Source of the DNA: a virus | UHGV virus genome: UHGV-0332040 | Direction: 5' to 3' (one strand) | DNA: 14,032 bases | Part shown: piece after piece, positions 1 to 14,032 of the stretch | Position numbering within the stretch: the first letter of the stretch is position 1 | How the letters are laid out: each line of letters starts with the position of its first letter | Notes under the pieces: generated by a model | What the model was told of the DNA's origin: nothing | The model's database searches: none | What the model saw: the letters and a program-made list of their open reading frames with translations, nothing else | Program-made: the position numbers and the translations under genes

Positions 1-1
1 A

Positions 2-415
2 TTAGTGCGCACTCATACGCGCCATGTTCAACACCTTCCGCACAGAGGTTTCAGACACGCCAACCTTACTTGCAATGTAACGATTCTTCTGGCCTTTTGC
101 AGAGCGCTCGATAATGTCAGCGCGTACTGCCTCAGTGATCACCTTGCGGGGTCTGGCTCGATTCTTCTCGTGCCGTTCACGTTCGCGCATCCGCTCGGCC
201 ATCTTCGGCGGCAGCACAGGGGAAAGCCCACGGCTAACGCCAGAGGTGCGGGTGTCGGACGTGGCAGCTCGGGCAACGATATAAACCACTTCGTCTGGAT
301 TGAAAACGTGCTGCACACGCTCAGGGTAAATGTGGTCGCATCTACCCAGCGGCAAGGCGAAATCCGGGCGCACGTCAGCGACACGCTCCACGGCATGGAA
401 ATTACAGGTACTCAT
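2..415 (-). CDS. DNA-binding protein with C-terminal helix-turn-helix (137 aa), function unknown
   Basis: Complete ORF with the stop at 2-4. A GAGG SD lies 6 nt upstream of the ATG at 415. The C-terminal segment RYIASKVGVSETSVRKVL looks like a resolvase/transposase-type HTH preceded by a basic RERERHEKNRARPRK stretch. The plus-strand ORF 5-418 is its antisense shadow. Confidence 0.6.
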   Translation of the reverse strand: MSTCNFHAVERVADVRPDFALPLGRCDHIYPERVQHVFNPDEVVYIVARAATSDTRTSGVSRGLSPVLPPKMAERMRERERHEKNRARPRKVITEAVRADIIERSAKGQKNRYIASKVGVSETSVRKVLNMARMSAH

Positions 416-554
416 TAGGAACCTCGGTTAATTAAAAACAGGCTTTTAGATGCCGCGCAGAATGCAGCTTGCGGGGACTCATGCGCTTAGATTGGTGTGG
501 TAGTACCGGGTTGGAGCGCACTCAGTCTTGCAGGGCGCATTCCACCGTTGGGCG

Positions 555-1241
555 TTAGCGACCAGCACGTTTGCCAGCGGAGCGCTGCGCAACCAGAGCG
601 CGGTATTGAATGTCGTACTGGCGATGGCCGGGGCCATACCCTGATTGCTGCGCCCACTGCGAAAGCTGATCATACGCTGCAATAAACTCAGCATGAGACA
701 TACCAACAGGTTGCGAGGCAGGCTGGCCGTATGGGTTCCCCTGTGATGGGACATAACCAGTCGCAGTGCCTGCGGCCATACGCTCTTGCAGATAATGAAC
801 CGCCCGCTGCATCTGCGCAGGGTCGCCAGACATAACCATCCGTTCAAGGGTTGATTGCGTCCCGGCGTCGAGCGTGCCAGCGTACTGCAACATCGCGTCA
901 ACTGTACCCTGCCCTAGCTGGCTTTCGACAGACTGGTGAAACTGCCCCATCAGCCCATGAAGTTCAGGAGTCAACTCAACAGTAGTGCCATCCTGTAATT
1001 GCAGTGTGTCGCCCACTTGTGCAGCAACATCAATCTGCTGGTCTTGCTGGTTGGCAAAGTTACTTTCGCTCCAGCTTTGATTAATGTTCGCTGGCTGCGT
1101 TTTCAGGAAATCAGCATCAGGTGTTGTCTGGTCGAATCGGCTAGCGCCGTTGTCAGCACCTACAGGTGCGGCCATGTACGGCGATTGCTGCGGCGCAGTA
1201 TCAGCGCCCGAAAGATATGGATTAACATTCTGGTCAGCCAT
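555..1241 (-). CDS. Hypothetical Q/N/D-rich acidic protein (228 aa)
   Basis: Long ORF in the same orientation as the operon. Its ATG lies 2 nt after the upstream stop (GCATAATCATG), and a GAGG sits about 10 nt upstream. I recognised no family motif. Confidence 0.6.
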   Translation of the reverse strand: MADQNVNPYLSGADTAPQQSPYMAAPVGADNGASRFDQTTPDADFLKTQPANINQSWSESNFANQQDQQIDVAAQVGDTLQLQDGTTVELTPELHGLMGQFHQSVESQLGQGTVDAMLQYAGTLDAGTQSTLERMVMSGDPAQMQRAVHYLQERMAAGTATGYVPSQGNPYGQPASQPVGMSHAEFIAAYDQLSQWAQQSGYGPGHRQYDIQYRALVAQRSAGKRAGR

Positions 1242-1243
1242 GA

Positions 1244-1483
1244 TTATGCAACCTCTTGTGATGTAACTCGGCGATGTGCCAGTTCAAGTAAAAGCATGTG
1301 TGCGTGTACGCAGCGTGGGGGAATCATCTTCTGACCGTGGTACGCCTTGCAGAGATCTTGTCTGTCAATTTGATACACACGAGCCAGATCGATTTGGCGT
1401 AGATTCAAGGCATCAGCAATGAATTTCAGTTGTTGCCCGCACTCCACCGCGCGGCGCGGCTCCATTAAAATGATGGTGCTCAT
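1244..1483 (-). CDS. Small HTH-like protein (79 aa)
   Basis: The start is trimmed to the ATG at 1483, which has GAGGA 7 nt upstream; the track ORF extends to 1525 without an RBS. The segment LNLRQIDLARVYQIDRQDLCKAYHG resembles an XRE/Cro-type HTH. Confidence 0.5.
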   Translation of the reverse strand: MSTIILMEPRRAVECGQQLKFIADALNLRQIDLARVYQIDRQDLCKAYHGQKMIPPRCVHAHMLLLELAHRRVTSQEVA

Positions 1484-1497
1484 GAAATAATCCTCAG

Positions 1498-1731
1498 TTA
1501 GATAAGGCCATGACGACGCAACCAACGTCGCTCGCCAACGGAGCCACGCGGTCGCTGCCTTGGGTTCTGGTTTGGTGCTTGGCCGGGATCAGTTCGTCCT
1601 TCCCCGGACAGGTTCTGTGTCAGCACATCCCAGCCGCGTGATTCAAACGGGGCGTATCCCTCGCGCTGTTCGTCAAGGTTCACATAGAGATCAGGGTTAA
1701 CGGCAGGGTGCAGCGGTTCGTTCTCTGCCAT
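1498..1731 (-). CDS. Hypothetical protein (77 aa)
   Basis: The ATG at 1731 overlaps the stop of the upstream gene (TGATG). It is co-oriented with the operon, and the next gene's SD lies in the 14-nt gap downstream. No recognisable motif. Confidence 0.45.
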   Translation of the reverse strand: MAENEPLHPAVNPDLYVNLDEQREGYAPFESRGWDVLTQNLSGEGRTDPGQAPNQNPRQRPRGSVGERRWLRRHGLI

Positions 1732-2291
1732 CACTTAGCCCCGAATCGCGTGTTAACATCTTCCAAAATATCGGGGTAGCTCCAGCGGTTACGCATCAGG
1801 CGCAGGACATGAGCAACAGCCTCAACAGAGATCCCAAGCTCTCCAGCGATCTCGGTTTGTTTCCAGCCGAAGCGCTCCAGCTTGTGCATCTGATCGAGGT
1901 CGGCGCTCAACAGGCGGCGCATCGTCTGAGGTTTCTCAGGCTTCGCTTTAACAGCTTTCGGCATCGGGTGGGTGTGGGCGTTGCTAAAGCGGGAATGTGC
2001 GATAGCCAGCACAGTCTCAGGGCGAATCAGCATATCGCGGGCAATCATAAACTCTGTATCGCGGTGCAGCTTGCCGGGCTTATAGCGGCTGCGGATGGCG
2101 TTGTACTCCGCCAGAGTGATATCAGCATCGTCTTTCCAATTTTCGGCCAAGTCATCGACATAGACGCCACGGATTACAGCATCAATATCGGTCAGGGTAT
2201 GACCTGTCTCCGCTGCAATCTCTTCATTGTTCTTTAGGTGCTTATGAGCCAGCGTGTTAATGCGCTGGATATCGGTAATGCTCAAAGTCAT
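1731..2291 (-). CDS. Putative DNA-binding protein with two HTH-like segments (186 aa)
   Basis: ATGA overlap with the upstream 58-codon ORF, and GGAG 8 nt upstream. The C-terminal WKQTEIAGELGISVEAVAHVLRL resembles a sigma-70 region 4 / LuxR-type HTH. The N-terminal NEEIAAETGHTLTDIDAVIRG is a second HTH-like stretch. Confidence 0.65.
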   Translation of the reverse strand: MTLSITDIQRINTLAHKHLKNNEEIAAETGHTLTDIDAVIRGVYVDDLAENWKDDADITLAEYNAIRSRYKPGKLHRDTEFMIARDMLIRPETVLAIAHSRFSNAHTHPMPKAVKAKPEKPQTMRRLLSADLDQMHKLERFGWKQTEIAGELGISVEAVAHVLRLMRNRWSYPDILEDVNTRFGAK

Positions 2292-2464
2292 ACATTAAAC
2301 TCCGAATCAAAATTGATCTGGTCAGTAACCAGCGAATGAATCAGCGCAAGGCTGGATGCGGTATGTGTGCCCGACTTGCGGGCGTTGTCGTACATGAAGC
2401 GGGCTACACGTTGATATTTCTCCGGCAGCGTGGCGAACCATTGCCGGAACTGTTCGGGGGTCAT
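2288..2464 (-). CDS. Small hypothetical protein (58 aa), absent from the ORF track because it is shorter than 60 aa
   Basis: Hand translation gives MTPEQFRQWFATLPEKYQRVARFMYDNARKSGTHTASSLALIHSLVTDQINFDSEFNV. It has ATGA overlaps at both ends (2461-2464 and 2288-2291). GGAGG lies about 10 nt upstream. It fills an otherwise unexplained gap in a tightly packed operon. Confidence 0.5.
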   Translation of the reverse strand: MTPEQFRQWFATLPEKYQRVARFMYDNARKSGTHTASSLALIHSLVTDQINFDSEFNV

Positions 2465-2670
2465 TGGTCGTCATCCTCCGGGAACACGTTGTTAAAGGTT
2501 GTATCAGGCGAGTCGGCGGCGTTCTGCTTGAGGAAGTTCACGCAGGATGACAACTCGGCAGCAGCCATGCGTGACTCTCCCGCCTCGTCCTCCTTAAGCC
2601 TGCGCGTCAACGCACCCAGCAGCAGGGTTTTTAGTTCCCATGCTCCGGCTTCAAATTCAGATTTCGTCAT
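2461..2670 (-). CDS. Small acidic hypothetical protein (69 aa)
   Basis: ATGA overlap with the upstream gene at 2667-2670, and GGAG about 10 nt upstream. There is a faint by-eye resemblance to small T7 gp18-like proteins (AAELSSCVNFLKQN versus PQLYNAINKLLDRH). That is not enough to name the product. Confidence 0.5.
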   Translation of the reverse strand: MTKSEFEAGAWELKTLLLGALTRRLKEDEAGESRMAAAELSSCVNFLKQNAADSPDTTFNNVFPEDDDQ

Positions 2671-3098
2671 TGGTGGTTATCTCCAGTTAGTCCCATTGCA
2701 CGCAAGTGTTGAATGACCTCGGCATGTACTGGTTTTGGTAAAAACAGGCGACGCTGCACGGATTGAAGTATCTCGTCGCGCGTCTTGTCGGCAGGGTGAA
2801 CAGTCCCATTAAAGACCTCACGAGCCATGCGATAGGTCGGCCAAAGGCGAGCGCCATCCTCCCTGCGACGGAATCTATTCAGCACAGCGGCCAGACACTC
2901 CCACGGCTCACAGTTATTGAGCAGGCAATACCGCTGTAGCGGTGTCGTTGCCCGGCGCATGATGGCTTCACGATTAAGGGTCTGAATATGACGTTCGGCC
3001 AGTCCGTCGAATGAATAGCCGTTCAAAGCAAAGGCGAGCTGCGCATTAAGCAGGGCGTCAGAACGCCCCGCACGATGCAGTGCGGTTTCATCAGGCAT
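2667..3098 (-). CDS. Hypothetical protein (143 aa)
   Basis: ORF with GGAG 8 nt upstream of the ATG at 3098. It is co-oriented with the operon and coupled to the downstream gene. No family motif recognised. Confidence 0.6.
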   Translation of the reverse strand: MPDETALHRAGRSDALLNAQLAFALNGYSFDGLAERHIQTLNREAIMRRATTPLQRYCLLNNCEPWECLAAVLNRFRRREDGARLWPTYRMAREVFNGTVHPADKTRDEILQSVQRRLFLPKPVHAEVIQHLRAMGLTGDNHQ

Positions 3099-3141
3099 AA
3101 GGATTCTCCAGAAAGGAATTTAAACAGGCGAGCTGGTCAGC

Positions 3142-5031
3142 TCAGAGGAAGCGGGAGATGTAACCCCAATTGCAGTTTTCAGGGCGGTACAACGCTGCCA
3201 GCTCATCAGGTACACCGGACGGCACCGGGGCAGAGTCGGCGTCATAGGTGATGGGGTCGCCATACAGAGCCAACGATGACCACAGCAGAAAAGCACGGGC
3301 AGGTTGACCGTCACGCCCGGCACGTCCGATCATCTGAACTAAATCGGGCAGGTCTTCGGGAACATAAGTGACAATTACGTTACGCACGCCAGAGATATCA
3401 GCCCCCAGCCCGAAGGCTTTAGTAGCAATCAGAACCGCGCCGGGCGTGCTGGCAAACCACGCAGCGTTAGCGTGACGCTGGTCGCGGCTCAGTCGCTCAA
3501 CGTCAGAATGGTAAGGCCGGGCGCGGTCTCCCAGTTCGTTGAGATACGCATACAGCATCTTGATACTGTCCACCATCACCAGCGTCTTCTCATCCAGCGG
3601 GAGGGCATCGACCAGACCAACGGCAGCCCGGCGCGTAGTTGCGCACTGCTGAACAGGAATAAGCTGGATGTTTTCACGGGCAGCACTGGCGCGGTAGGTG
3701 AGGAACTCGCCACGACAGCCAAGCTCTTTCATCAAGCCAGACTCATCACCTTTTCGCAGGGTCGCAGTAAACGCGCACCGCTGAGCATCCGGGAAGGCAT
3801 TTTTCAGGGTGTGTTTCATTGCAGGGAAAGCGTCCCGGAACTCCCATTCATCAACGGTATGAACCTCGTCAATGATAAATCTGTCCACACCAGCGGCCAT
3901 CAGCGCAGCCAGCACCTGATTGCCCGGCACCAGATGCTCAGGTGAAACTACGGCAACGTGGAAAGCGCCAGCAGCCAACCCCGCAAGCTGTTGCGCATTG
4001 CGTCGCCTCGGCAGCTTGTCGCCAAAGGCAACAGCGTGAACGCCAGTTTCTAGCAACTGCTGTAACACCTGCTGCTTGATGGTGTTTGTAGGCACAACAA
4101 TAACGGTCAGACCGTCATCAGAATCAGATTCAAATTGCAGGGCATAGGTGAATGCAGCCGTCTTTCCGTACCCGGTTGGCAGTACGGCCAATACATCGCG
4201 GTCACGGGCAAATACGGCGGCAGCTACGTCCTGCTGGCCGGGTCTCCAGTCTCTGCCATCTAGCGGTGGTAACGGTACGAATGCCGGGCGGTCGCATTGC
4301 TCCAGCTCGCGGAACCTGTACGGCGCGGTAACCAGCGGCGGGATGGACGGCGGCAGGCCAGCACCCCCAACGTCACAATGCAGATTCAGCGTATTGAATT
4401 TATCATCCGTGGGTTTCAGCTCACCGCACCACAACTGACGGAAAGCCGGGCAGTCACCCAGTCGCGTAAAGTCAGCATGGCGCATAGCTTCCAGCTTGCT
4501 CATGCCGCGACTGATACGACGCACGATCTTCTCATCGCAAATCAGAAACTCACGGCAGGCTTTGAGGAAGGCATTCTGCCCGGTTGTCGCTTCCGGGATG
4601 GAGTGCTCGCGCGGTTTAAGCGCAGCGTCATCAACGCGAACGCCGGGGAAATCTGGCGGCAGCGGCTCGGCGTACCGGGCAGGCTTTTTGTTTAGCCACA
4701 TCTCCAGCTCAGCGCGGCGGCAGTGGATTGCATCGCCCGGCTGGATAATCTGGCGCAACCCGGCATCAGCGCGGCGGGAATGTCGCTTGCGGCCAATTCC
4801 ATTCGCCTCTTTCCATTCACGGAACGACATAACTGAACCATCTGCATTGTAGAAATACTGCCCGGAAACGGTGTTAAGCGCTGCCTTCACTGGTCGCTGT
4901 TTAACAGGGCATAACTTGGAATGAGGTATAACGATCTTATCCGCAACCAGTTGCTGAGCATCCGCAGGCTCGGTGTTCAGCGGTTCGGCGTCAGCGGCCA
5001 GCGTAAGCAAGCGGTTTAAATTGGTTGGCAT
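3142..5031 (-). CDS. RecQ-family SF2 DNA helicase with an unassigned ~260-aa N-terminal domain (629 aa)
   Basis: Helicase motifs run in order: WRPGQQ (Q-motif-like), LPTGYGKT (motif I), IIDEVH (motif II, DExH) and FTATL (motif III). The end YHSD...LIATKAFGLGADISGVRNVIVTYVPEDLPDLVQMIGRAGRDG matches RecQ motifs V/VI (GRAGRDG). GGAG lies 9 nt upstream of the ATG at 5031. Confidence 0.85.
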   Translation of the reverse strand: MPTNLNRLLTLAADAEPLNTEPADAQQLVADKIVIPHSKLCPVKQRPVKAALNTVSGQYFYNADGSVMSFREWKEANGIGRKRHSRRADAGLRQIIQPGDAIHCRRAELEMWLNKKPARYAEPLPPDFPGVRVDDAALKPREHSIPEATTGQNAFLKACREFLICDEKIVRRISRGMSKLEAMRHADFTRLGDCPAFRQLWCGELKPTDDKFNTLNLHCDVGGAGLPPSIPPLVTAPYRFRELEQCDRPAFVPLPPLDGRDWRPGQQDVAAAVFARDRDVLAVLPTGYGKTAAFTYALQFESDSDDGLTVIVVPTNTIKQQVLQQLLETGVHAVAFGDKLPRRRNAQQLAGLAAGAFHVAVVSPEHLVPGNQVLAALMAAGVDRFIIDEVHTVDEWEFRDAFPAMKHTLKNAFPDAQRCAFTATLRKGDESGLMKELGCRGEFLTYRASAARENIQLIPVQQCATTRRAAVGLVDALPLDEKTLVMVDSIKMLYAYLNELGDRARPYHSDVERLSRDQRHANAAWFASTPGAVLIATKAFGLGADISGVRNVIVTYVPEDLPDLVQMIGRAGRDGQPARAFLLWSSLALYGDPITYDADSAPVPSGVPDELAALYRPENCNWGYISRFL

Positions 5032-5052
5032 GGTGCAAACTCCAGAGAAGGA

Positions 5053-5490
5053 TTAAATACTACGCGCCCAAGCTAAATCTTCGGGTGTCCGACTTTCGAT
5101 TAACGCTAACTGCCAGCGTAAGTAATCCTCATGTTCTTTGGTGTATCGGGGAATACCTATAGGATTTTTCACAGCGTCCGGGTTAGTCCTCGCGACTTCC
5201 CTGCAATCTCGGTCGAAAGCCCAGCGGGCAACTTCCACCGATTCGTAATCCGTAAATCGGTACGGCCTTGTGCGGGAACGTACACGCCAGACAACTTGCC
5301 CTAATTCGTGGATGTATATGCCGCAAAGTTCATCCGGGCTTGGGTGATACAATGGCTCCCCATAATTCTGGCGCATGAACTTCACAAACTTTTGATTGCG
5401 GCGGGCACGCCGTGCTTTTTCGCGTCGCTCCTCGGCTTCATACTCTTTTTGAATGGCGGCACGGTCTACCGGGATAAGTGTTTTGCTCAT
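5053..5490 (-). CDS. Hypothetical protein (145 aa), first gene of the helicase operon
   Basis: The start is trimmed to the ATG at 5490 (MSKTLIPVD...), which has GGAG about 8 nt upstream. The track ORF extension to 5667 runs through the iteron-like repeats and has no RBS. Basic EERREKARRARRNQK stretch; no family recognised. Confidence 0.6.
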   Translation of the reverse strand: MSKTLIPVDRAAIQKEYEAEERREKARRARRNQKFVKFMRQNYGEPLYHPSPDELCGIYIHELGQVVWRVRSRTRPYRFTDYESVEVARWAFDRDCREVARTNPDAVKNPIGIPRYTKEHEDYLRWQLALIESRTPEDLAWARSI

Positions 5491-5560
5491 ACAGTGATCT
5501 CCAGAAATTAATGTGAGTTTGGAACGGGGCGCAGGACGGAAGCGCCGGGAGTGTGGCAGT

Positions 5561-5914
5561 CTGTCCTCCTTAGTAGTTACCATCATTGCAATGGCGTCGG
5601 AGTTCTGTCTCTCTTTAGTAGTGATCTTCATCCAGTAATTTGGATTAAATGCAGACACGGCGGGCATTGCAGCGAGATGGAGAGTAGGCGGGCTTGCGGT
5701 TTCAGTCTGCCTTAGTACAAGTTTCTAGTGGTCGGTAGCCTTTCCCTTATTAGTAGCTCTCATTTATCCGGGGCTTGTCTTCCCACACAGTAGCCGTCTT
5801 CTAAAGCAACCACACCACAATCCACTACTGGCAAGGAGTTAGCAGACACGGTGATGTAGGCTACTCAAGTGTGGATTTGTAGGCGTTTTATAGTATCTGT
5901 CCTTCTTATTAGAC
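5561..5914. repeat. Array of six degenerate iteron-like repeats (plus-strand consensus about CTGTCYTCYTTAGTAG)
   Basis: Copies lie at 5561-5576, 5605-5621, 5705-5718, 5739-5756, 5774-5793 and 5897-5914, all in the same orientation. Three are spaced about 35 bp apart. A second perfect 10-mer, GCAGACACGG, occurs at 5651-5660 and 5842-5851. Confidence 0.6.
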
Positions 5915-5980
5915 ACCTTTAAATTTCATTAATAAATACAGTTAGTTAAACGGTTATCTTTATTACTTATAAATTTCACA

Positions 5981-6002
5981 GATCAATAAATTAAAATTGA
6001 TC
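5981..6002. repeat. Perfect 7-bp inverted repeat carrying two GATC sites (GATCAAT-N8-ATTGATC) inside an AT-rich block
   Basis: Read directly from the sequence. The surrounding region, about 5915-6050, is strongly AT-rich by eye. Confidence 0.7.
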
Positions 6003-6015
6003 GGAATTATCAGCT

Positions 6016-6044
6016 TTAATTTTCTTGACAGCTATTTGTATAAT
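6016..6044 (+). promoter_or_regulatory. Candidate sigma-70 promoter (perfect -10 TATAAT at 6039-6044, weak -35 TTAATT at 6016-6021)
   Basis: The TATAAT is preceded by TG at 6037-6038 in an AT-rich context. The TTGACA at 6025-6030 is only 8 bp from the -10, so it cannot be its -35. No plus-strand ORF lies downstream. Confidence 0.3.
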
Positions 6045-6050
6045 GGTTTT

Positions 6051-6190
6051 AAGAAGTTGTATCGGAGTGAGCGACTGGCAGTGAGCGTAGCGAACGATAA
6101 GCCAGTCGGCGAAGAACGAAGAGTATGAGATGACTTGTCATCGAATACGATGAGTGATTGAGCGGTACGAACGGAGATACGCTGTATAAC
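6051..6190 (+). ncRNA. Candidate structured purine-rich RNA downstream of the TATAAT promoter
   Basis: Stop-rich, with no ORF on either strand apart from the low-complexity 64-aa track ORF on the minus strand. There is an 8-bp perfect stem CGACTGGC/GCCAGTCG (6072-6079 / 6101-6108). There is a near-palindromic hairpin at 6123-6148 and a possible closing helix GTATC/GATAC (6059-6063 / 6176-6180). The motifs GAGTGAGCG and CGAACGA repeat. Ends and strand are not established. Confidence 0.3.
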
Positions 6191-6222
6191 AGTTAGAACA
6201 GTTAACAAGCTGATTAATGCTT

Positions 6223-6387
6223 TCAATGATTATCTGAATCAGTGTTATCAATTCCGAAATAACTCTTCCTCTCCTGTATTGATTCAATCATTTCTTTCAT
6301 TTCAAGAATCACTACCAGCTCAGCTAATAACCGTCTCAGTTCAACATTTGAATCATTAGCACGACACTTATTTTCTGAGTATTCCAT
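6223..6387 (-). CDS. Small charged helical protein (54 aa), below the ORF-track cutoff
   Basis: Hand translation gives MEYSENKCRANDSNVELRRLLAELVVILEMKEMIESIQERKSYFGIDNTDSDNH. GGGAG lies 8 nt upstream of the ATG at 6387. A candidate promoter lies upstream. The gene is AT-rich, moron-like in composition. Confidence 0.45.
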   Translation of the reverse strand: MEYSENKCRANDSNVELRRLLAELVVILEMKEMIESIQERKSYFGIDNTDSDNH

Positions 6388-6432
6388 ACGGTCAACTCCC
6401 TACGGTATAAGTCCATTCCAATCCGTTCACAG

Positions 6433-6460
6433 ATTACATTGCTGAATGATCATCAGACAA
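6433..6460 (-). promoter_or_regulatory. Candidate sigma-70 promoter for the 54-codon ORF (TTGTCT-16 nt-TGTAAT) with a GATC-centred near-palindrome in the spacer
   Basis: On the minus strand the -35 is TTGTCT (6455-6460) and the -10 is TGTAAT (6433-6438). The spacer overlaps the near-palindrome CTGAATGATCATCAG (6442-6456). The motif GTGAACGGATTG (6419-6430) sits at the predicted transcription start. Confidence 0.35.
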
Positions 6461-6479
6461 GTGGCAGTCATCATCACCA

Positions 6480-6920
6480 AGTTAGAGTCGTCTCGCTACA
6501 TATCCCCGCCGGATTGCCAGCGCGGCTAACACGGTTGTGAGGAGCGCCGAGCATCACAGCGGACGCAGGCCGATGAACGAGCCGTAGGTGAGTGAAAGCG
6601 GACTCGCGGACGCGAGAAGCGCAGCAGCAGGCGGCGACTGATAAACGAGCCAGACAGGTGAGTGCAAGCAGGCGTAAGCACTGCACCGTTGAGAGGTGTG
6701 GAGACGGCGGAACGTCTCCGCGTTAGGGAGGTGGATTTGGGGAGGATGTGCAAGGCACACCTCGCTCCACCCACGGGGTGTCGGTGGGTAGGGGTATAAC
6801 GCTAATTGGTTAAGTGTACACATGTACGCTGAAATCATTAAAAGCCTATAGAAACAGCATGTAACCCAGCACCACGACATAACCAATTATCGTTGAACCC
6901 CCTCCCCGGCCCCACCCGGA
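6480..6920. ncRNA. Candidate large structured non-coding element (GC- and purine-rich on the plus strand)
   Basis: There is no credible ORF; the three minus-strand frames are open only because that strand is pyrimidine-rich. Five strong hairpins lie at 6603-6616, 6657-6687, 6700-6719, 6742-6763 and 6769-6789. Two ~30-nt degenerate repeat units lie 68 nt apart (6572-6601 and 6640-6672). G-runs at 6726-6745 and 6775-6794 face a C-run at 6898-6919. AT-rich sequence flanks the island. Confidence 0.3.
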
Positions 6921-7089
6921 ATTTTTCAGTGATGAATCACTTCACAATCTGATCTCGATGTTCATCGTCTGGCACGGCTAAAGCCCCGCCATCTCTTCAC
7001 ATCGAGAGCCGCAAGTAATACGAAAATACATTATAAATCATAGCATTACGACATCGCGCATAACATAACGCTCTGAAATTAATACGAAA

Positions 7090-7207
7090 GCTGTAGGTCA
7101 TCCATCACCCACAGCCCAGTAACGGCCAGTGCTGGCACCTCATTTGGCTGTAGGTCAGCCCGACCCCACCGCCCAATAACCCCACCCGGCAGCAATGGCA
7201 CGGCACC
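7090..7207. repeat. Tandem pair of ~50-60 bp degenerate direct repeats starting GCTGTAGGTCA
   Basis: Unit 1 is 7090-7139 and unit 2 is 7147-7207. Both begin GCTGTAGGTCA and end ...GGCACC. TAATACGAAA is duplicated just upstream at 7016-7025 and 7080-7089. Confidence 0.65.
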
Positions 7208-7329
7208 AGACGCAGCGTAACGATCTCTGAGTTGATAAATCACTTAGGGCAGCGTAACCCACACCCAACGGCTCACATCCTCGCAGAGAGGCTCACAGAT
7301 CACCTCGTGACATTTCACAGCATCAACCC

Positions 7330-7953
7330 TCAGACGCTGGCAGCCAGCTCACGCTTAATGCGGTAGAACGTTGCCCGGCTTATCCCGGCAGCTTTCATGA
7401 TGCGCTCCGGTTTCACACCCTGCGCCAGCATTTCCCTGACGGTCTCGCGAGCGGCGGCATCCTTCTGACTCCCACGATAAAGCCCCTCAGCTTTGGCTCG
7501 TTCAATGCCCTGCCGCTGGCGCATCAGTCGCGTCTCGTAGTCCACGCGGGCCATTGTAGCGAGGATATCGATCAGCATTGCGTTAACGGCTCTGAGGATG
7601 CCGCTGGTTAGCTCTGACGCGGTTTCGTTCAGCAACTGCCACGAGGTTGGCAGGTCAACGGCGACGATCACCAGCCCCTTATCCTGAATCCTCTGTTTCA
7701 GTGTCGCCCATTCCTTTTGTGTCAGGCGGCTTAGCCTGTCTATGCTTTCGACAAGTAGAACGTCGCCAGCCTCCGCCTCACCCAGCAGGCGCATCAGTTC
7801 AGGACGCTCCAGCCGCGCACCGCTGGCGTTCTCGATGTATCGCGCAGCAATAGACCAACCACGCTCATTAGCGAAATCCTCCAGCGCAGGAACGGCACGG
7901 TCGGCGTGTTGCTCGGCGGTGGATGCCCTGGCATACAGACGAACGTTATTCAT
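7330..7953 (-). CDS. Small serine recombinase (resolvase/invertase family, 207 aa)
   Basis: The N-terminal RLYARASTAEQ carries the catalytic-serine motif. VLLVESIDRLSRL is the resolvase core motif. ISRATFYRIKRE is the C-terminal HTH. GGAGGG lies 6 nt upstream of the ATG at 7953. Confidence 0.9.
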   Translation of the reverse strand: MNNVRLYARASTAEQHADRAVPALEDFANERGWSIAARYIENASGARLERPELMRLLGEAEAGDVLLVESIDRLSRLTQKEWATLKQRIQDKGLVIVAVDLPTSWQLLNETASELTSGILRAVNAMLIDILATMARVDYETRLMRQRQGIERAKAEGLYRGSQKDAAARETVREMLAQGVKPERIMKAAGISRATFYRIKRELAASV

Positions 7954-8062
7954 GATTCACCCTCCAAATCTCAGTGAAGTATCACATCCCGACATGAAGG
8001 AGATCACACTTAAAAACCGTGGTCAATAGGGTATAAAATAAATTTGATTGCGACAGCTTAGG

Positions 8063-8210
8063 CACATCACAATGCGGTATACCCGGATGAGACAGAGACA
8101 GCCAGCGGCAGACTGGCACCGAGTCACAGCAAAACCCCGGCGCACCCAGCGAACGCAGCGCAAAGCGCACACAGGAGATCAGCACGGCACCGCCACGATC
8201 TCGAAATCAC
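8063..8210. repeat. Right-hand copy of a direct repeat that also occurs left of the recombinase gene (6938-7243)
   Basis: Shared motifs are collinear. CACWTCACAAT lies at 6938 and 8063. CGGCAG-N3-TGGCAC lies at 7187 and 8105. GCACGGCACC lies at 7198 and 8182. ACGATCTC lies at 7220 and 8195. AAATCAC lies at 7237 and 8204. Confidence 0.6.
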
Positions 8211-8536
8211 AAAGGCGTTGAATCAAACATTGCAACCGCAGCAGTAACCAGCCAGCATTTCGCGCCTGCAACGGTTGTCTCGGATGAGCAAAATCTTAGG
8301 GTTTTCTCAGCGACCCCTGACGCGCGGGCACGCACATGCGCACGGGGGCGCGGGCGAGCTATACAGTTGAGGGAGGGGCAACCATAAGCGTGCAATTTTT
8401 CAAGCCGGGACTTTTAACAGTGGGATTGTGAGGCTATTTTGCATTCAGAGAGTGAGGCTGTAGGGTAGCTCCCCTTGAACCAGATAACGCTAAGCTAACC
8501 ATTTTCCCCACTGCTTAAGCCACTTTGCGTTGACGT

Positions 8537-9037
8537 TCAGCACCCCACAGCAGCATTATCCGGCATCAGAAACGGAATCAGTTTAGTATCACCATGCACA
8601 TATAACGGGTGCATAGGCTCTCCCGTTGCGTTAATTTTAAAACACTTCGTATCTACAGGAAGGAACGCCCGTACTACGGCAGAGCGTTTCAGGTGCCGCC
8701 CTTCATTCCCCCACGCAGCAACAACGATACCAGCACCAGCTATCAATTCTGCCAGATACTTATCATTATCCGCCCCGACAGGCTCCGGGAATCTCATCAT
8801 CTCAAAGCGGTCAGTACACACATACGCGAACAGGTTCGCGATACGTACCCCCCCGAAGCCCCAGCTCTGCGCAAATGAGATACAACGTTTCAGTGTGGGG
8901 TCGTCAAGCTCTGCGTCCGCATACGATGGATTCAAACCGATGAAAAGAGCATAAGGCTTTGCAGCGTCCCACGTTCTGGAAATAGCGTAACGGTACTTCC
9001 CGCACACAGAGAAGATCGCGTCTTTGTTCACATCCAT
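8537..9037 (-). CDS. DUF1643-family protein (166 aa)
   Basis: From memory, this is the strong family pattern of DUF1643 proteins. It includes CGKYRY...R.W, LFIGLNPSYAD, DDPTLKRCISFAQSWGFGG, NLFAY, AAWGN and HPLY...TKLIPF. The start ATG at 9037 lies 2 nt after the stop of the upstream small ORF, with GAGGG as its SD. Confidence 0.85.
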   Translation of the reverse strand: MDVNKDAIFSVCGKYRYAISRTWDAAKPYALFIGLNPSYADAELDDPTLKRCISFAQSWGFGGVRIANLFAYVCTDRFEMMRFPEPVGADNDKYLAELIAGAGIVVAAWGNEGRHLKRSAVVRAFLPVDTKCFKINATGEPMHPLYVHGDTKLIPFLMPDNAAVGC

Positions 9038-9039
9038 GA

Positions 9040-9180
9040 TTAACCCTCTTCACTACGTTTATCATCCCGCATCGAGTCAATGAAGTCGCGTTGCTCCTGC
9101 GTCAGTTCCAGATTTTCTAACAACTTGTCTAATTCTATTTCGGCGGATTCTTGCTTCTGCAAACGCTCTTTGTCAGCCAT
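9040..9180 (-). CDS. Small highly charged coiled-coil-like protein (46 aa), below the ORF-track cutoff
   Basis: Hand translation gives MADKERLQKQESAEIELDKLLENLELTQEQRDFIDSMRDDKRSEEG. Its stop TAA (9040-9042) is followed 2 nt later by the ATG of the DUF1643 gene. An AT-rich promoter-like region lies upstream. Its own SD is weak. Confidence 0.5.
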   Translation of the reverse strand: MADKERLQKQESAEIELDKLLENLELTQEQRDFIDSMRDDKRSEEG

Positions 9181-9205
9181 GCCAAGCCCCACAAGATTAG
9201 GATTA

Positions 9206-9233
9206 ATCTTAGGCTACAAAATGATCAATACAA
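9206..9233 (-). promoter_or_regulatory. Candidate promoter of the small-ORF/DUF1643 operon (TTGTAT-16 nt-TAAGAT)
   Basis: On the minus strand the -35 is TTGTAT (9228-9233) and the -10 is TAAGAT (9206-9211). The motif CAATCCGTT (9238-9246, minus strand) abuts the -35. Confidence 0.3.
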
Positions 9234-9785
9234 ATGCAACGGATTGTTATTTATTACAGATACAAGAATTAAGGGGGAAATAATCAGGAGGGGATGCCCC
9301 GGACTGCCAGCACAGAACCGGGGCGAATGCGGACGGAGCCACCCATCAGCCGAATAACCATAGCCTATTTTCTGGCAATAGCAAGCCATAAGCGCCGTGT
9401 TGGGTACACTCAGCAGCAGCGCCATCGGCGCATCATCATCTCAATCTTGTACAATCATCCGTTCACTTATCGAGTACCGTTCATTTATGGCACGGTGAAC
9501 ACCACGGCAGAGCCAGCCCCTTTCCCGGACTGGTTAGGCTTCCCAACATCAGCTCGTTTATCCGTGGCGTGTCATCACGACAGGCGGGAACCGGACACCG
9601 CGCTAAGTGCGGAACAGATGAATGTTTCAGGGAATCATGCCGGGTGAACGGCTTTCAGTTCATGTTGGACTATCGCGGTATGACCAGTGGAACGACCGCC
9701 AGCGCTTTGCTAAACTCCCTGTTCACCGTTCAACAAATCGCGGCAACTATCAGGGTAAATAGCGGTACTTTGGTCACATCACCTT

Positions 9786-9875
9786 AGAGCTAACTCATTG
9801 AGTTATAAGGCTTTTAATGGGCTGGAGCGGGCGAAGGGAATCGAACCCTCATAGCTAACCCATTGAATTGTGAAC
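9786..9875. repeat. Imperfect 25-bp direct repeats bracketing the att core (AGCTAACYCATTGARTT)
   Basis: The copies at 9786-9810 and 9851-9875 match at about 18 of 25 positions by hand alignment. A further 9-mer, GCGGTACTT, lies at 9762-9770 and 9890-9898. Confidence 0.65.
9823..9850 (-). other. att core: 28-nt copy of the 3' end (T-arm, acceptor 3' strand, CCA) of tRNA-Gly(CCC), glyU type; not a complete tRNA
   Basis: The minus strand reads GAGGGTTCGATTCCCTTCGCCCGCTCCA. As I recall it, this matches the 3' end of E. coli glyU. Sequence 5' of it on the minus strand (9851 onward) cannot form the acceptor, D or anticodon arms. Confidence 0.85.
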
Positions 9876-9938
9876 CAAAATAAGTAATCGCGGTACTTAT
9901 CCCGGTAGTTGGTAGCGGTAGATTACAAGGTAATTACC

Positions 9939-11165
9939 ATGCCAATCAAGAAGACTTCTTATCTTTATGCAAACAAAGATGGGATATTCATCTTTCAAAT
10001 CTTTATCCCGGTGTACATGCGCCACTTATGGCACGGGCGGCGCTCACTCAAGAAATCGACAGGCACGCGGGACATCATGCAAGCTCGCATATTCCGTGAC
10101 CAATACTTATTAGAGTTCCGAAAGCTCCAGCTCATGATGAAACCGGATAACCCTATAAACCGGATTCATTCTGCTATTTCAGATCTTCACTTACTGGCGG
10201 GAATATCCAGCGACATTACCGCGCCCGTAACTACTCCAGCAGAACGAGGGAAACCAGCGTCGCCAAAATTGACAGATGTCAGTAAAGAATATGCAGAGCA
10301 ATACAAAGATCGGCGCTCTTATTCCACATTGAGTAAATCCGCTCGCGCTGTATCAGCATTCACTAAATCAACTAAGCGCCCAACAATTACAATAAACGGA
10401 ATCGGGCGGCGGCTCGTCTCTGACTTTCTGAAAGCGAACCAAGATAAGTTTTCCCGGCAGACGATGCAAAACTGGTTAACTTGCTTAGGTACGCTGTACG
10501 ACTTCGCCCGGCGTAAATATGACAATATCGCCCCTGATAATCCCTTTCACGGCCACAATCTGGAAGCCCGTCAGACAAACGAAAGTTACCAGCCGTTTGA
10601 ACCGCACCAGCTACAGACATTAACAAAAAAGGCAGGTGACGAAATAAGGGATGTAATAATAATCGGGCTGTATTCCGGGATGCGTCTTGATGAAATAGCC
10701 AGCATTAAACGGGATGAGGTTGTCACCATCGACGGCGTGCGGTGTTTCTATGTCAGTAAATCAAAAACAAAGGCGGGTATAAGGCATGTCCCTGTACACT
10801 CGCTGTTATTTGACATTGTTGATAAATACCTCGCGCAAAACAGCGGGGAGTACCTGCTCCCCCAATCCAACAAAATTAAACGCGCGGATGGTAAACGTGG
10901 GCCGTGGTATTCTCAGACATTTACCCGCTTACGTCGCCGGGTACTACCAACAGCCACAGAGCGCCAGTGTTTCCACTCCCTGCGTGGTCACTTCATCACC
11001 TGCTTAGACCGGGCAGGTGTACCAGAACAGCGCATAGGAGCTATTACCGGGCATACAGAGAAAAAGGCAAAGACGGAAGCATTTAAAACGTACAGCCAAG
11101 GGGCTGGGATGAAAGAACTATCTGAATACGTAGAGCTGGTAAGTTATCCAGAACTTGAATCATAA
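9939..11165 (+). CDS. int: Tyrosine recombinase / phage-type integrase (408 aa)
   Basis: The C-terminal catalytic pattern is present: GMRLDEI (Arg), HSLRGH (His-x-x-Arg) and GHTEK...FKTY (His and Tyr). It lies directly next to the tRNA-derived att core. The start is trimmed to the ATG at 9939; the track start at 9909 is a TTG. Confidence 0.9.
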   Translation: MPIKKTSYLYANKDGIFIFQIFIPVYMRHLWHGRRSLKKSTGTRDIMQARIFRDQYLLEFRKLQLMMKPDNPINRIHSAISDLHLLAGISSDITAPVTTPAERGKPASPKLTDVSKEYAEQYKDRRSYSTLSKSARAVSAFTKSTKRPTITINGIGRRLVSDFLKANQDKFSRQTMQNWLTCLGTLYDFARRKYDNIAPDNPFHGHNLEARQTNESYQPFEPHQLQTLTKKAGDEIRDVIIIGLYSGMRLDEIASIKRDEVVTIDGVRCFYVSKSKTKAGIRHVPVHSLLFDIVDKYLAQNSGEYLLPQSNKIKRADGKRGPWYSQTFTRLRRRVLPTATERQCFHSLRGHFITCLDRAGVPEQRIGAITGHTEKKAKTEAFKTYSQGAGMKELSEYVELVSYPELES

Positions 11166-11167
11166 TT

Positions 11168-11596
11168 TCAGGCAGGGTAAATAATCCCCAGCCCGCGATA
11201 CTGGCGGCGGTATTCTCTGACCAGAGCATCCGCCGTCGCCCTCGGCAGCTTCGCCATATGCCCGGTACGATAGCCACCCTCGGCAGAATTCGCTGCACGA
11301 TGTACAACAGCCCGCACGCGCCCGGTTCTGTGGTCGTGGTCGAGGGTCGTGCTGCTGAACGCAACAGCCCGCCCGGTAACGGCACACCGTCGATACTGAT
11401 AATTCCACAGAAAGCAACGCACCGCAGCCACGTCAGCACGGCGCAACTCCAGTCGCCCTGAACCATTCAACAGGAGGCGATACACATCGTCGAATGCAGC
11501 AGCGTTTCTAACGCGCTCAGCCAGCGGCATATTGCCAAGGAACTCCAGATAATCCCGCATTGCTTTTCTTAAAAGTTGGTCTGTCCGTGTAACCAT
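11168..11596 (-). CDS. Endonuclease VII-family (His-Me finger) protein lacking most zinc-binding cysteines (142 aa)
   Basis: CAVTGRAVAFSSTTLDHDHRTGRVRAVVHRAANSAEG aligns with the family pattern CxxCG...DHDHxTGxVRGLLCxxCNxxLG. The DHDH and Asn are retained but 3 of 4 Cys are replaced. GGAG lies about 10 nt upstream of the ATG at 11596. Confidence 0.7.
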   Translation of the reverse strand: MVTRTDQLLRKAMRDYLEFLGNMPLAERVRNAAAFDDVYRLLLNGSGRLELRRADVAAVRCFLWNYQYRRCAVTGRAVAFSSTTLDHDHRTGRVRAVVHRAANSAEGGYRTGHMAKLPRATADALVREYRRQYRGLGIIYPA

Positions 11597-11868
11597 GATT
11601 CAAAGTCTCCATTGTCAGACACAGCCCGCTTGCAGGCTTCGTATTCTTCGCGCTGGCGTTGGCATACCAGAGCATAAAGCTCATCAGCCACCGCATTTAC
11701 GCGCCTATCACTGATACCGTTGCGACGCATCTGCCCCAGCAGCTTACGAAATTCAGCCTCAAGCTCAGGCTCTCCTGTATCCATTACCCACTGTTTCAAG
11801 TCAGCGAGTGCGCCAGTCATTGGCGGCGGCTCGATGTACCGCCACCTTAATTTAATCGTCAAAGCCAT
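11569..11868 (-). CDS. Hypothetical protein (99 aa)
   Basis: The start is placed at the ATG at 11868, with GAGG 7 nt upstream. Alternative starts lie at 11874 and 11820. The gene overlaps both neighbours, as is typical of phage late clusters. No motif recognised. Confidence 0.5.
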   Translation of the reverse strand: MALTIKLRWRYIEPPPMTGALADLKQWVMDTGEPELEAEFRKLLGQMRRNGISDRRVNAVADELYALVCQRQREEYEACKRAVSDNGDFESWLHGQTNF

Positions 11869-12277
11869 AAGCATTCCTCTTTATATCGTTTGCTCTCGCT
11901 TCACTGGCTTGTTTAAGCGTCATTCCTTCGATAGCTATATCCAGCAGTTCCTTTTGCTTACCAGCCAATCGCAAGGCGCTGTCTCTCCAGCAAAGCAGAA
12001 AGAAGATTGTCAGCACCTGTTTACTCAATCCATCCAGAAGATCGCCAAGTCCTTGATCCAGCAGACAGGCACGCCATGCAGCAGCGTGCTGCGTCATAGC
12101 ACCGACTATCGGGATAGGTGCGCCAAGCATCGTCGCAAGCTGACTCATAACACTATTAGCATCGCCCGGATGCAGCCGGGGAATAGTCATGCGGCCAGCC
12201 TGCGCCAACAGCTCGGCGTACCTCTGGCGACGTGGGTCATCACATGCCAGCGGTTTAATTGGCTTTTCATCAGCCAT
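11852..12277 (-). CDS. Hypothetical protein (141 aa)
   Basis: GGAGG lies 8 nt upstream of the ATG at 12277. It follows the HNH gene after an 18-nt gap. No motif recognised. Confidence 0.6.
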   Translation of the reverse strand: MADEKPIKPLACDDPRRQRYAELLAQAGRMTIPRLHPGDANSVMSQLATMLGAPIPIVGAMTQHAAAWRACLLDQGLGDLLDGLSKQVLTIFFLLCWRDSALRLAGKQKELLDIAIEGMTLKQASEARANDIKRNAYGFDD

Positions 12278-12295
12278 ATATGGAACCTCCGAGGA

Positions 12296-12823
12296 TTAGG
12301 CAGCCTGCAACAAATCGGCTGGCGTTGAGGGATGGTATCTGGCTTTAGCTTTTAGATAGGCAGCACGCGCCGCCGCTTCGGTTGTGAACAAGCCAAGGTG
12401 ATGGCGTACACCATTAACGCGAATGTAAGCCTCCCATTTACCAGAACAAGAATGACGGCTATATCCCTTCGCTTTGCGGTAGTTGTGCTGATTCTCCTGC
12501 GGTGTAACAGCGCGGAGGTTGCCCGGTCGATTATCGGCACGTACAGCGTTAATGTGGTCGATTTGCAGACCGTCAGGGATACCACCATTAGCAATGATGA
12601 AGGCCACGCGATGCGCATAAATCGAGTGCGTCCTGCCGTCGATGCGGACAGACACGCGCCGATACCCGGCGCTGTCCGTTGCGGTGTCAGCCAGTTCCCC
12701 GGCCTCAGCATAAATCCGCTTGTTGATTCCAATTCGGTCTACTGCATGGAACAGGCGGCCAGTCTCCGCATCGTATCGAAATAAAGAGCGTAGCAGCTCA
12801 GGGGCGTAAGCATCATTAACCAT
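12296..12823 (-). CDS. HNH homing endonuclease with C-terminal AP2-like DNA-binding domain (175 aa)
   Basis: IDHINAVRADNRPGNLRAVTPQENQHN is the HNH_3-type motif. The N-terminal YDAETGRLFH...GYRRVSVRIDGRTHSIYAHRVAF is typical of this phage endonuclease family. GKWEAYIRVNGVRHHLGLFTTEAAARAAYLKA looks like an AP2 domain. Confidence 0.85.
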   Translation of the reverse strand: MVNDAYAPELLRSLFRYDAETGRLFHAVDRIGINKRIYAEAGELADTATDSAGYRRVSVRIDGRTHSIYAHRVAFIIANGGIPDGLQIDHINAVRADNRPGNLRAVTPQENQHNYRKAKGYSRHSCSGKWEAYIRVNGVRHHLGLFTTEAAARAAYLKAKARYHPSTPADLLQAA

Positions 12824-12839
12824 GACTCAGCCCCTCCAG

Positions 12840-13835
12840 TTACACAGCTTGTCGGAAATTGATAACGCAGTCAGGGCGGCGCAGTCCAACATTGAACAGG
12901 CGATATGAGTCCATCACCATCGTCATTTCGCGCTCATCATCCCACTGGCGATTGATAACGCTCTGCGCTTCGACTGTCACAAGTACAGACGCAGGCCGGA
13001 ACAGCGTCGCCCGCGTCAGCGCTTCCTCTGAGGTAACGTCATAATCAGCGCCCAGTTCATGCCCGGTAATAGCTTCCTGCGGGTAACTGTTCAGCTCAAT
13101 GACTCGTACCCCAGCGACATAGCCAACTCGACGCCATGCGTAATCGTTGCCACTATCCCGGCTGTAACGGACGTTCATCAGCTTCTTATGTTCCATCAGG
13201 ATGCTGAACCAAGCCGGGTCGATAAGCAGTACCAGCTCGGCCACCGGAATATCTTTCTCAGTGAGAAAGCGATTAGCAGCCGCTTTTACGACGTGAGCCA
13301 ATTCGTTTGCGGCGTCCTCTTCGCTCCCCGCTGTCAGGTCGAGCGATACAACGTTATCCGTTAGTGGGTTAAACGTTGGTTGCAGTGTCGGCGGCGGTAC
13401 AAAGTCAGTCGCTTTGATTAGCTGGATGGTGTGCGCTTCGTCGTAGAATTTAGCGTGAGCAGTACCCATATTGCGGCTCAGCTCTGCGCGAAAGGTGGGC
13501 GCTGTCCAGTCGTCCTGATAGTCAATCGGAATGCGGATATAGCTCAGCGTATCCACAGAGATAATCAGCTTATCCGACTTAACAGCGGTAGGCTCCAGCG
13601 ATTGCCCTGCGGTTCTGCCCTTCACCTCCAGATCACCACTCAGGCGATCAATGCGGTATTGGTTGCTGGCTTTCAGCGGCCTGTATGTAGACAGCCCCTC
13701 TGCCAGAAATACGGATTTGGACTCTAAACGGGTCTGGACATCCCGGTCATAAGCCTCGATGTGAATATCATTGTCGGATTCCACCCCGCCATAATGTGGG
13801 CGAAACAGATCGGGACTGTACGAAGTATCAGTCAT
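12840..13835 (-). CDS. Major capsid protein, T7 gp10-like (HK97 fold) (331 aa)
   Basis: By-eye alignment to T7 gp10A matches two blocks. FRAELSRNMGTAHA aligns with VRSEYTSQLGESLA. The C-terminal LFRPASVLVTVE...GLRRPDCVINF aligns with LFMHRSAVGTVK...GLRPEAAGAVVF. The start is trimmed to the ATG at 13835, with AGGAG 8 nt upstream; the track start at 13880 has no RBS. Confidence 0.75.
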   Translation of the reverse strand: MTDTSYSPDLFRPHYGGVESDNDIHIEAYDRDVQTRLESKSVFLAEGLSTYRPLKASNQYRIDRLSGDLEVKGRTAGQSLEPTAVKSDKLIISVDTLSYIRIPIDYQDDWTAPTFRAELSRNMGTAHAKFYDEAHTIQLIKATDFVPPPTLQPTFNPLTDNVVSLDLTAGSEEDAANELAHVVKAAANRFLTEKDIPVAELVLLIDPAWFSILMEHKKLMNVRYSRDSGNDYAWRRVGYVAGVRVIELNSYPQEAITGHELGADYDVTSEEALTRATLFRPASVLVTVEAQSVINRQWDDEREMTMVMDSYRLFNVGLRRPDCVINFRQAV

Positions 13836-13894
13836 AAACAAAACTCCTACGTAGGTTGATGAAGCCCGCGCCATCGTCATGGCACAGACGTGCG

Positions 13895-13919
13895 GAATCC
13901 TCCCGCCGAGGCAGGATTC
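13895..13919 (-). promoter_or_regulatory. Stable hairpin in the capsid gene leader
   Basis: The minus strand reads GAATCCTGCCTCGGCGGGAGGATTC, giving a 7-bp stem plus 2 further pairs. It lies about 60 nt upstream of the capsid ATG. No U-run follows, so it is not a typical intrinsic terminator. Confidence 0.35.
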
Positions 13920-14032
13920 AGAACGGTATCGATTAAAGGGATGAGGTGCCCCGAAATGGGCGTTTTGAGGCCAGAGCTGGCGCGGTTCTCAGAGGTTAGT
14001 GCGCGTGAAGTAAGGCGAACGTATTACCTTGC

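Follow-up and report, generated by a model that had tools for sequence, protein, structure and literature searches.

The segment 9669–9920 of the DNA analysed here is very probably the attP site, composed of distal arm, core and proximal arm, of a roughly 14-kb element that targets the glyU gene, carries capsid genes and was captured as a closed unit. The DNA in question, referred to as the window, is the whole 14,032-nt stretch of the virus genome UHGV-0332040. An earlier sequence-only reading had proposed an attP on the grounds that the same repeats occur on both sides of a core derived from tRNA-Gly. These repeats are suggestive, but the assignment is supported mainly by comparison with integrated copies.

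Integrated copies and closure of the unit

Related loci were gathered by look-up of the exact integrase protein and the DUF1643 protein, and every core in the fetched loci was classified. Eleven junctions are of the attL type, in which the left arm of the window is followed by the core, the rest of tRNA-Gly and then actS (L003 7538, L006, L014–L019, and L021–L023). At least eight are of the attR type, consisting of unrelated DNA, a displaced core, the right arm of the window and int (L001 12002, L004, and L007–L012). The window and L013 are the only sequences in which the two arms are combined; L003 511 is a partial case with a diverged left arm. Neither arm is present at L002 9801, where the core continues into the tRNA body in an attB-type configuration next to a different island. 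The identical 28 bp are found at every attL-type and attR-type junction examined. In integrated copies, each flank of the window forms the end of the element at one of the two junctions, which makes both flanks part of the element. The choice of attP over attL or attR is thus borne out, as each attL-type and attR-type junction carries one flank. Neither chromosomal genes nor an intact glyU, either of which would speak against an attP, was found to border one end. The right flank (9851 onward, together with int) is 100% identical in L001, L004 and L007–L012, a conservation that says little, since arm diversity is low among close relatives.

The chromosome of E. coli 5735 (NZ_CP154887.1, L001) holds a near-identical element integrated at glyU. 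Window positions 9822–14032 match positions 12001–16211 of this locus with 99.95% identity, and positions 1–8243 match 16212–24448 with 98.9% identity. Bases 14032 and 1 of the window are neighbours in integrated copies (14094/14095 in L007, and 16211/16212 in L001). The window thus comprises precisely one unit, 14,032 bp long and circularly permuted. Circularity of the contig had been named as a check on the attP proposal, and the window indeed closes on itself exactly at 14032/1.

Compared with the 5735 copy (L001/L002), the window is 99% identical except for the int-distal 1.5 kb. Positions 8243–9197 are largely unalignable, and positions 9197–9845 are only 77% identical. Judged by this alignment, the distal end of the element appears to be mosaic, with the DUF1643 gene lying within the replaced segment.

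The other sequence with both arms, L013, is a gut metagenome scaffold of 14,140 bp deposited in ENA (WANG20-1_SAMN08918244 scaffold_1525, ERZ28663180). Over 11,565 bp it agrees with the window at 100% identity. The junction is internal to the scaffold, roughly 1.7 kb away from the closer end, and identical sequence extends for kilobases on either side of it. L013 leaves the window at 11504, inside the endonuclease VII gene, and its terminal 53 nt (L013 11566–11618) are unrelated. These 53 nt are absent from the other fetched loci, except for one chance 12-mer in L010, and they may represent a tip, a chimeric end or variation between strains. The size of L013 equals 14,032 + 55 + 53 nt, which fits one unit plus a k-mer overlap and a tip. 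L013 may be the window's own source and not an independent observation. A reading of L013 as a circle with a 108-nt terminal overlap was rejected, as its last 53 nt are unrelated sequence. The ~11–13 kb contigs of relatives (L053–L056) were also rejected as further circles, since each is either an integrated copy or a contig interrupted at the att repeat.

The arm–core–arm junction is present in one of 24 contigs carrying the identical integrase, and none of 5,426 complete E. coli genomes contains it. No record with the junction was found among the PLSDB plasmids, exact-pattern scans of IMG/VR and of JGI metagenomes yielded no match, and neither did megablast against phage genomes. This rarity in databases fits a transient excised form, without proving it. 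A search for the attB, attL and attR counterparts had also been suggested. The attL-type and attR-type versions were found, as described above, but not an empty attB with the same flank. A search with the L007-type chromosomal flank plus tRNA gave L052 as its sole match, and this locus was rejected as an empty attB, being occupied by a related element whose int-side site has 53 nt of tRNA identity.

Integration arrays at glyU and the origin of the junction

In E. coli 5735, the order at glyU is island A, the 14-kb element, and island A again. The two copies of island A (L001 7548–12029 and L002 5347–9874) bracket the element between glyU and ygeQ/ETT2. The island encodes a 544-aa integrase and a DUF4145 protein, and possesses a 23-bp core of its own that ends in GTATC. 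The presence of two copies is consistent with successive rounds of integration into the regenerated tRNA gene. Integrases that are 60–71% identical all target the identical glyU core (L024, L026, L027, L029–L034, and L052). On the int side of these relatives, the blocks of tRNA identity measure 23, 30, or 52–53 nt, and the arm motifs differ. The left flanks of L029, L030 and L032–L034 correspond to the distal arm of an unrelated 11–12 kb family, the TATACAC family (L036 and L040). From these varied sites and foreign flanks, glyU is therefore regarded as a hotspot where several lineages integrate and tandem arrays are frequent.

Such arrays bear on the origin of the junction. Two head-to-tail chromosomal copies would yield the identical arm–core–arm sequence and the exact closure, and a short-read assembler could have collapsed them to a circle, with no free circle involved. 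A tandem or nested arrangement had been named early on as the less simple alternative, and mixed arrays are indeed real at glyU: they occur in E. coli 5735, L003, L010, L026 and L029–L034, a distal-type arm lies left of the int-side core at L003 511 and in L026, and another island abuts the int side in L010 and L029–L034. However, a tandem of the same element is seen in no long contig. In the 24 longest contigs with the DUF1643 gene, the left arm adjoins the tRNA in every case (24/24), and the complete E. coli genomes lack the junction altogether. Collapse of a tandem is thus considered quite improbable, and a tandem junction would still be functionally an attP.

Hardly credible is an in silico artefact, in which an integrated copy was assembled as a contig bounded by the 28–29-bp att repeat, called circular, trimmed and rotated. 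Detectors of direct terminal repeats accept repeats of ~20 bp, and relatives do assemble as ~11–15 kb contigs that start at or near the core, exactly so in L027 and 92 bp before int in L054–L056. The window itself, however, neither starts nor stops at the core, and the junction in L013 is interior, with identical kilobases on either side. Moreover, the final k-mers of common assemblers are longer than a repeat of 28–29 bp, so that the junction k-mers would have come from reads.

Architecture of the probable attP site and its integrase

A core formed by a tRNA 3' end and flanked by arm repeats is the textbook layout for tyrosine integrases. Here, the core 9823–9850, TGGAGCGGGCGAAGGGAATCGAACCCTC, matches the 3' end of tRNA-Gly(CCC) on the minus strand in 28 of 28 nt, with the genes called by ARAGORN in four genomes (L003, L006, L014, and L020) serving as references. 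The identity to the tRNA ends at 9851, and ARAGORN detects no tRNA gene in the window. This agrees with the sequence-only reading, which had described the core as the 3' end of a tRNA-Gly(CCC) whose remainder is absent. Rfam gave no match, the tRNA fragment included, either at gathering thresholds over the whole window or at permissive E-values over 9000–10000. Once integrated, the core would provide the 3' end of the regenerated glyU gene.

Within the core, the T-loop is bordered by the imperfect inverted halves of the T-stem, AAGGG (9834–9838) and CCCTC (9846–9850), which are likely the core-type sites of the integrase. In L026 and L031–L034, tRNA identity comprises just 23 bp and ends exactly at the T-loop. 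Because the identity of these relatives stops there, the T-loop is the likely overlap region, and strand exchange probably takes place within it (Table 1). The hybrid cores of E. coli 5735 (CCCTC versus GTATC) were considered as bounding the crossover to 9823–9845. This bound was dropped because sequential integration of island A, the 14-kb element and island A explains these cores and sets no limit on where the 14-kb element crosses over.

Table 1. Features of the element and of its probable attP site, in window coordinates
Feature	Position	Strand	Description
Complete circularly permuted unit	1–14032	.	int, endonuclease VII, HNH, major head, scaffold-like, DEAD-box helicase, small serine recombinase, DUF1643
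Int-distal arm of the probable attP	9640–9822	.	Directly adjoins intact tRNA-Gly in integrated copies
Further GGTA-type copy, ACTATCGCGGTA	9669–9680	+	Int-distal arm
GGTA-type repeats, int-distal arm	9736–9770	+	AATCGCGGCAACTATCAGGGTA then AATAGCGGTACTT, ~11 bp spacing; candidate arm-type sites
R2, left copy, CCTTAGAGCTAACTCATTGAGTTAT	9782–9806	+	From arm repeat comparison
IHF-like site in left R2, ACTCAATGAGTTA	9791–9803	-	One mismatch to WATCAANNNNTTR
Core (O)	9823–9850	-	T-stem 5' strand, T-loop, T-stem 3' strand, acceptor 3' strand, CCA
Probable strand-exchange (overlap) region	9839–9845	.	7-nt T-loop AATCGAA
R2, right copy, CCTCATAGCTAACCCATTGAATTGT	9847–9871	+	Overlaps last 4 bp of core
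IHF-like site in right R2, ATTCAATGGGTTA	9856–9868	-	One mismatch to WATCAANNNNTTR
GGTA-type repeats, int-proximal arm	9886–9920	+	AATCGCGGTACTTATCCCGGTA then GTTGGTAGCGGTA, 12–13 bp spacing
int, 408-aa tyrosine recombinase	9939–11165	+	Adjoins att site

The motifs that the sequence-only reading had seen on both flanks are present and exceed the shuffle level. AGCTAACYCATTGARTT is found at 9788–9804 and 9853–9869, within the 25-nt segments given by that reading and with no further copy in the window, and GCGGTACTT at 9762–9770 and 9890–9898, its sole two copies in the window. The left arm (123 nt) and the right arm (88 nt) were compared through their best ungapped matches. For the first repeat, R2, the arms agree at 15 of 17 positions, a score that none of 300 dinucleotide shuffles reached. 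The second, in an extended form (9736–9757 versus 9886–9907), agrees at 17 of 22 positions, and one of 300 shuffles reached this score. Each R2 copy contains an IHF-like site; at up to one mismatch, the loose IHF consensus has 15 matches in the 14-kb window compared with nine expected. A series of the motif T[AC][ACG][CG]GGTA, which like the other arm motifs was defined after inspection of the data, comprises six plus-strand copies in 9673–9920, spaced 10–13 bp apart within clusters; 1000 Markov simulations gave a maximum of two copies per 260-nt span. The GGTA copies at 9673, 9738 and 9750 are kept in the diverged arm left of the L003 core at 511. The int-proximal repeats lie 19–53 bp upstream of the int start codon.

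Further features of the arms were observed. An inverted repeat, GTTCACCGTTCAA (9721–9733) and TTGAATTGTGAAC (9863–9875), has one copy per att arm, with 11 of 13 bases complementary, and each member is located just upstream of the first GGTA-type repeat in its arm. Left of the att site, a conserved non-coding block at 9369–9720 matches unannotated DNA of other E. coli chromosomes (81.7%) and of Klebsiella plasmids (85%). The stretch at ~9640–9720 stays conserved in otherwise diverged arms (L020, L003 511, and L026), and Rfam gave no match for it. The block at 9369–9720 may have a regulatory role, encode a small RNA or serve as the platform to which a directionality factor binds. A scan for sigma-70 promoters and terminators over 9300–10000 returned nothing.

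The integrase consists of an N-terminal domain with a beta-sheet and a helix, a SAM-like core-binding domain and a Phage_integrase catalytic domain. Pfam assigns the N-terminal domain a weak DUF6538 match and no arm-binding family, and no sequence-level similarity of the protein to any solved integrase was detected. In a structure model, the N-terminal domain matches a solved arm-type binding domain. The motif on the int side varies with the integrase lineage: SGGTA accompanies integrases of at least 71% identity, a TGTAC pair those of 60–66% identity, and a third lineage has neither. In L004, the 190 bp that run from the core into int (9823–10012) are 100% identical, while the rest of int is 75–97% identical. 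L026, whose integrase is 71% identical, has GGTA repeats upstream of int, and the remainder of its arm is unalignable. In the lineages with 60–66% identity, two TGTAC repeats 12 bp apart occupy the same position as the GGTA repeats. The conservation in L004, the retention in L026 and the replacement by TGTAC according to lineage point to a heterobivalent integrase acting on the GGTA repeats. The unrelated glyU element family of L036 and L040 has its own motif, TATACAC, on both arms. The left arm of L020 contains TGTAC, but its pairing with the TGTAC-type integrases was rejected, as the body of the L020 element is not close to L027.

Based on these assignments, in which the GGTA repeats are candidate integrase sites and R2 the candidate location of IHF binding, the following mechanism is proposed. 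The 408-aa integrase would be heterobivalent, with its N-terminal domain binding the helically phased GGTA-type repeats on both arms, while the core-binding and catalytic domains would contact the T-stem inverted repeat. IHF would bend the DNA at the two near-consensus sites within R2, joining arms and core, and strands would be exchanged within the 7-nt T-loop. The product would have the int-distal arm beside a regenerated, intact glyU, and the int-proximal arm beside the displaced 28-bp tRNA fragment. Among the ORFs of the element, Pfam and PHROG revealed no excisionase or AlpA-type gene; a novel small directionality factor is possible.

The R2 repeats might alternatively be decayed relics of tRNA-Gly, left by a longer ancestral core or by serial integrations, and not protein sites. 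This origin would be compatible with an attP. The 8-mer CCATTGAA is common to the right R2 copy and the D-arm region of the tRNA, in the right order and orientation, and 15 of 1000 shuffles reach this score, a marginal level. Since the int-side tRNA identity of relatives is longer, with 30 nt in L027 and 52–53 nt in L024, L029, L030 and L052, an ancestrally longer tRNA segment is plausible, and for the right R2 copy alone a decayed longer core is conceivable. The left copy, by contrast, lies beyond the CCA end, outside any tRNA sequence, and its score is not significant, being reached by 162 to 206 of 1000 shuffles. In addition, the two copies are far closer to each other (15/17) than either is to the tRNA, and the IHF-like sites coincide with both. 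The faint resemblance of the flanks to tRNA-Gly mentioned in the sequence-only reading is thus retained, marginally, for the right flank and not for the left. A relic origin of R2 as a whole is unlikely, and the assignment of R2 as the candidate IHF location is preferred.

Cargo and relation to known systems

Among the genes of the element are those for a major head protein (phrog_267, 6.9e-70) and a scaffold-like protein (phrog_1018, 5e-6). Together with a 69-aa ORF described below, they are located at 12840–13880, 555–1241 and 2461–2670, all on the minus strand. The major head protein is 55–56% identical to the capsids of virulent T7-like Autographiviridae, and its relatives include those of Escherichia phage Lidtsur and kin and of Cronobacter phage RZ4. 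The 69-aa ORF shows a weak match to the T7 gp18-type DNA packaging protein (PF11123). No portal, protease, head-tail connector, tail or lysis genes, and no clear terminase, were found in the element. It is thus a small integrated element with an integrase and morphogenesis genes and no full virion gene set, as is characteristic of a satellite, and the predicted cargo suggests a satellite of T7-like phages. The T7-like capsid cargo is a more unusual feature than the att site.

A bolder reading, which is possible but doubtful, holds that the circle is the mobilised form, be it excised, replicating or packaged, of undescribed, widespread enterobacterial satellites that have their own T7-like capsids and parasitise virulent Autographiviridae, or, secondarily, that R2 stems from a tRNA-Gly copy with an internal deletion, recruited as a binding site. 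The proposed satellite capsid would be built from the element's own major head and scaffold-like proteins, possibly with a gp18-like small terminase. In the papers searched on glyU islands and on satellites of T7-like phages, no description of this element family or of its combination of genes was found.

A region of ~1.8 kb (5500–7330) contains almost no convincing ORFs and lies just upstream of the small serine recombinase gene (7330–7953). Part of it is AT-rich, with a GC content of 0.40–0.43 at 5500–6500. It includes 34-nt direct repeats at 7090–7123 and 7147–7180, 57 bp apart, and a 30-nt inverted repeat at 6786–6815 and 6877–6906. The region may be an origin or a resolution site.

In its layout the site appears to be a lambda-type attP, whereas its apparent choice of target resembles that of tRNA islands of the P4/HPI type. 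As in the attP of lambda, a site of ~250 bp has a short core between two arms, direct repeats on both arms, and near-consensus IHF sites on either side of the core, predicted here from sequence. In contrast to lambda, where the core is intergenic, the core is the 3' end of a tRNA, and no Xis gene was found in the element. The integrases of P4 (leuX) and of the Yersinia HPI (asn tRNA) also use an attP that carries a tRNA 3' end, so that the gene is regenerated. In those islands, as here, int is located beside the att site, and repeated use of one tRNA gene leads to island arrays. Differences from P4 and HPI are the N-terminal domain with its weak DUF6538 match, the cargo, and the position of int, which is found here on the side of the displaced tRNA fragment and not beside the intact tRNA.

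The size of ~14 kb, the integrase and the fixed chromosomal site are shared with PICIs, P4-like satellites and capsid-forming PICIs. The last also resemble the element in having their own major head and scaffold-like genes together with an HNH endonuclease. The circular junction is the form expected of such satellites after induction, and it is the one indirect hint at induction, packaging and transfer by a helper phage. Unlike in capsid-forming PICIs, the capsid is T7-like and not of the kind described for them, and no AlpA was found.

The att site itself adds little to what is known, but the exact ends and the unit length of 14,032 bp are now defined for this mobile element, and at least one natural sample is shown to contain its circular junction. 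The compact map of core, candidate arm sites and candidate IHF sites can be used for integrase engineering or for excision PCR. The hotspot status of glyU matters for the delimitation of islands at this gene, including those beside the ETT2 secretion-system island. The element occupies glyU in E. coli, Enterobacter bugandensis and Rosenbergiella, as well as in several other assemblies from enterobacteria and in gut metagenomes. If the tentative satellite reading is true, the attP would let such satellites re-enter glyU after transfer.
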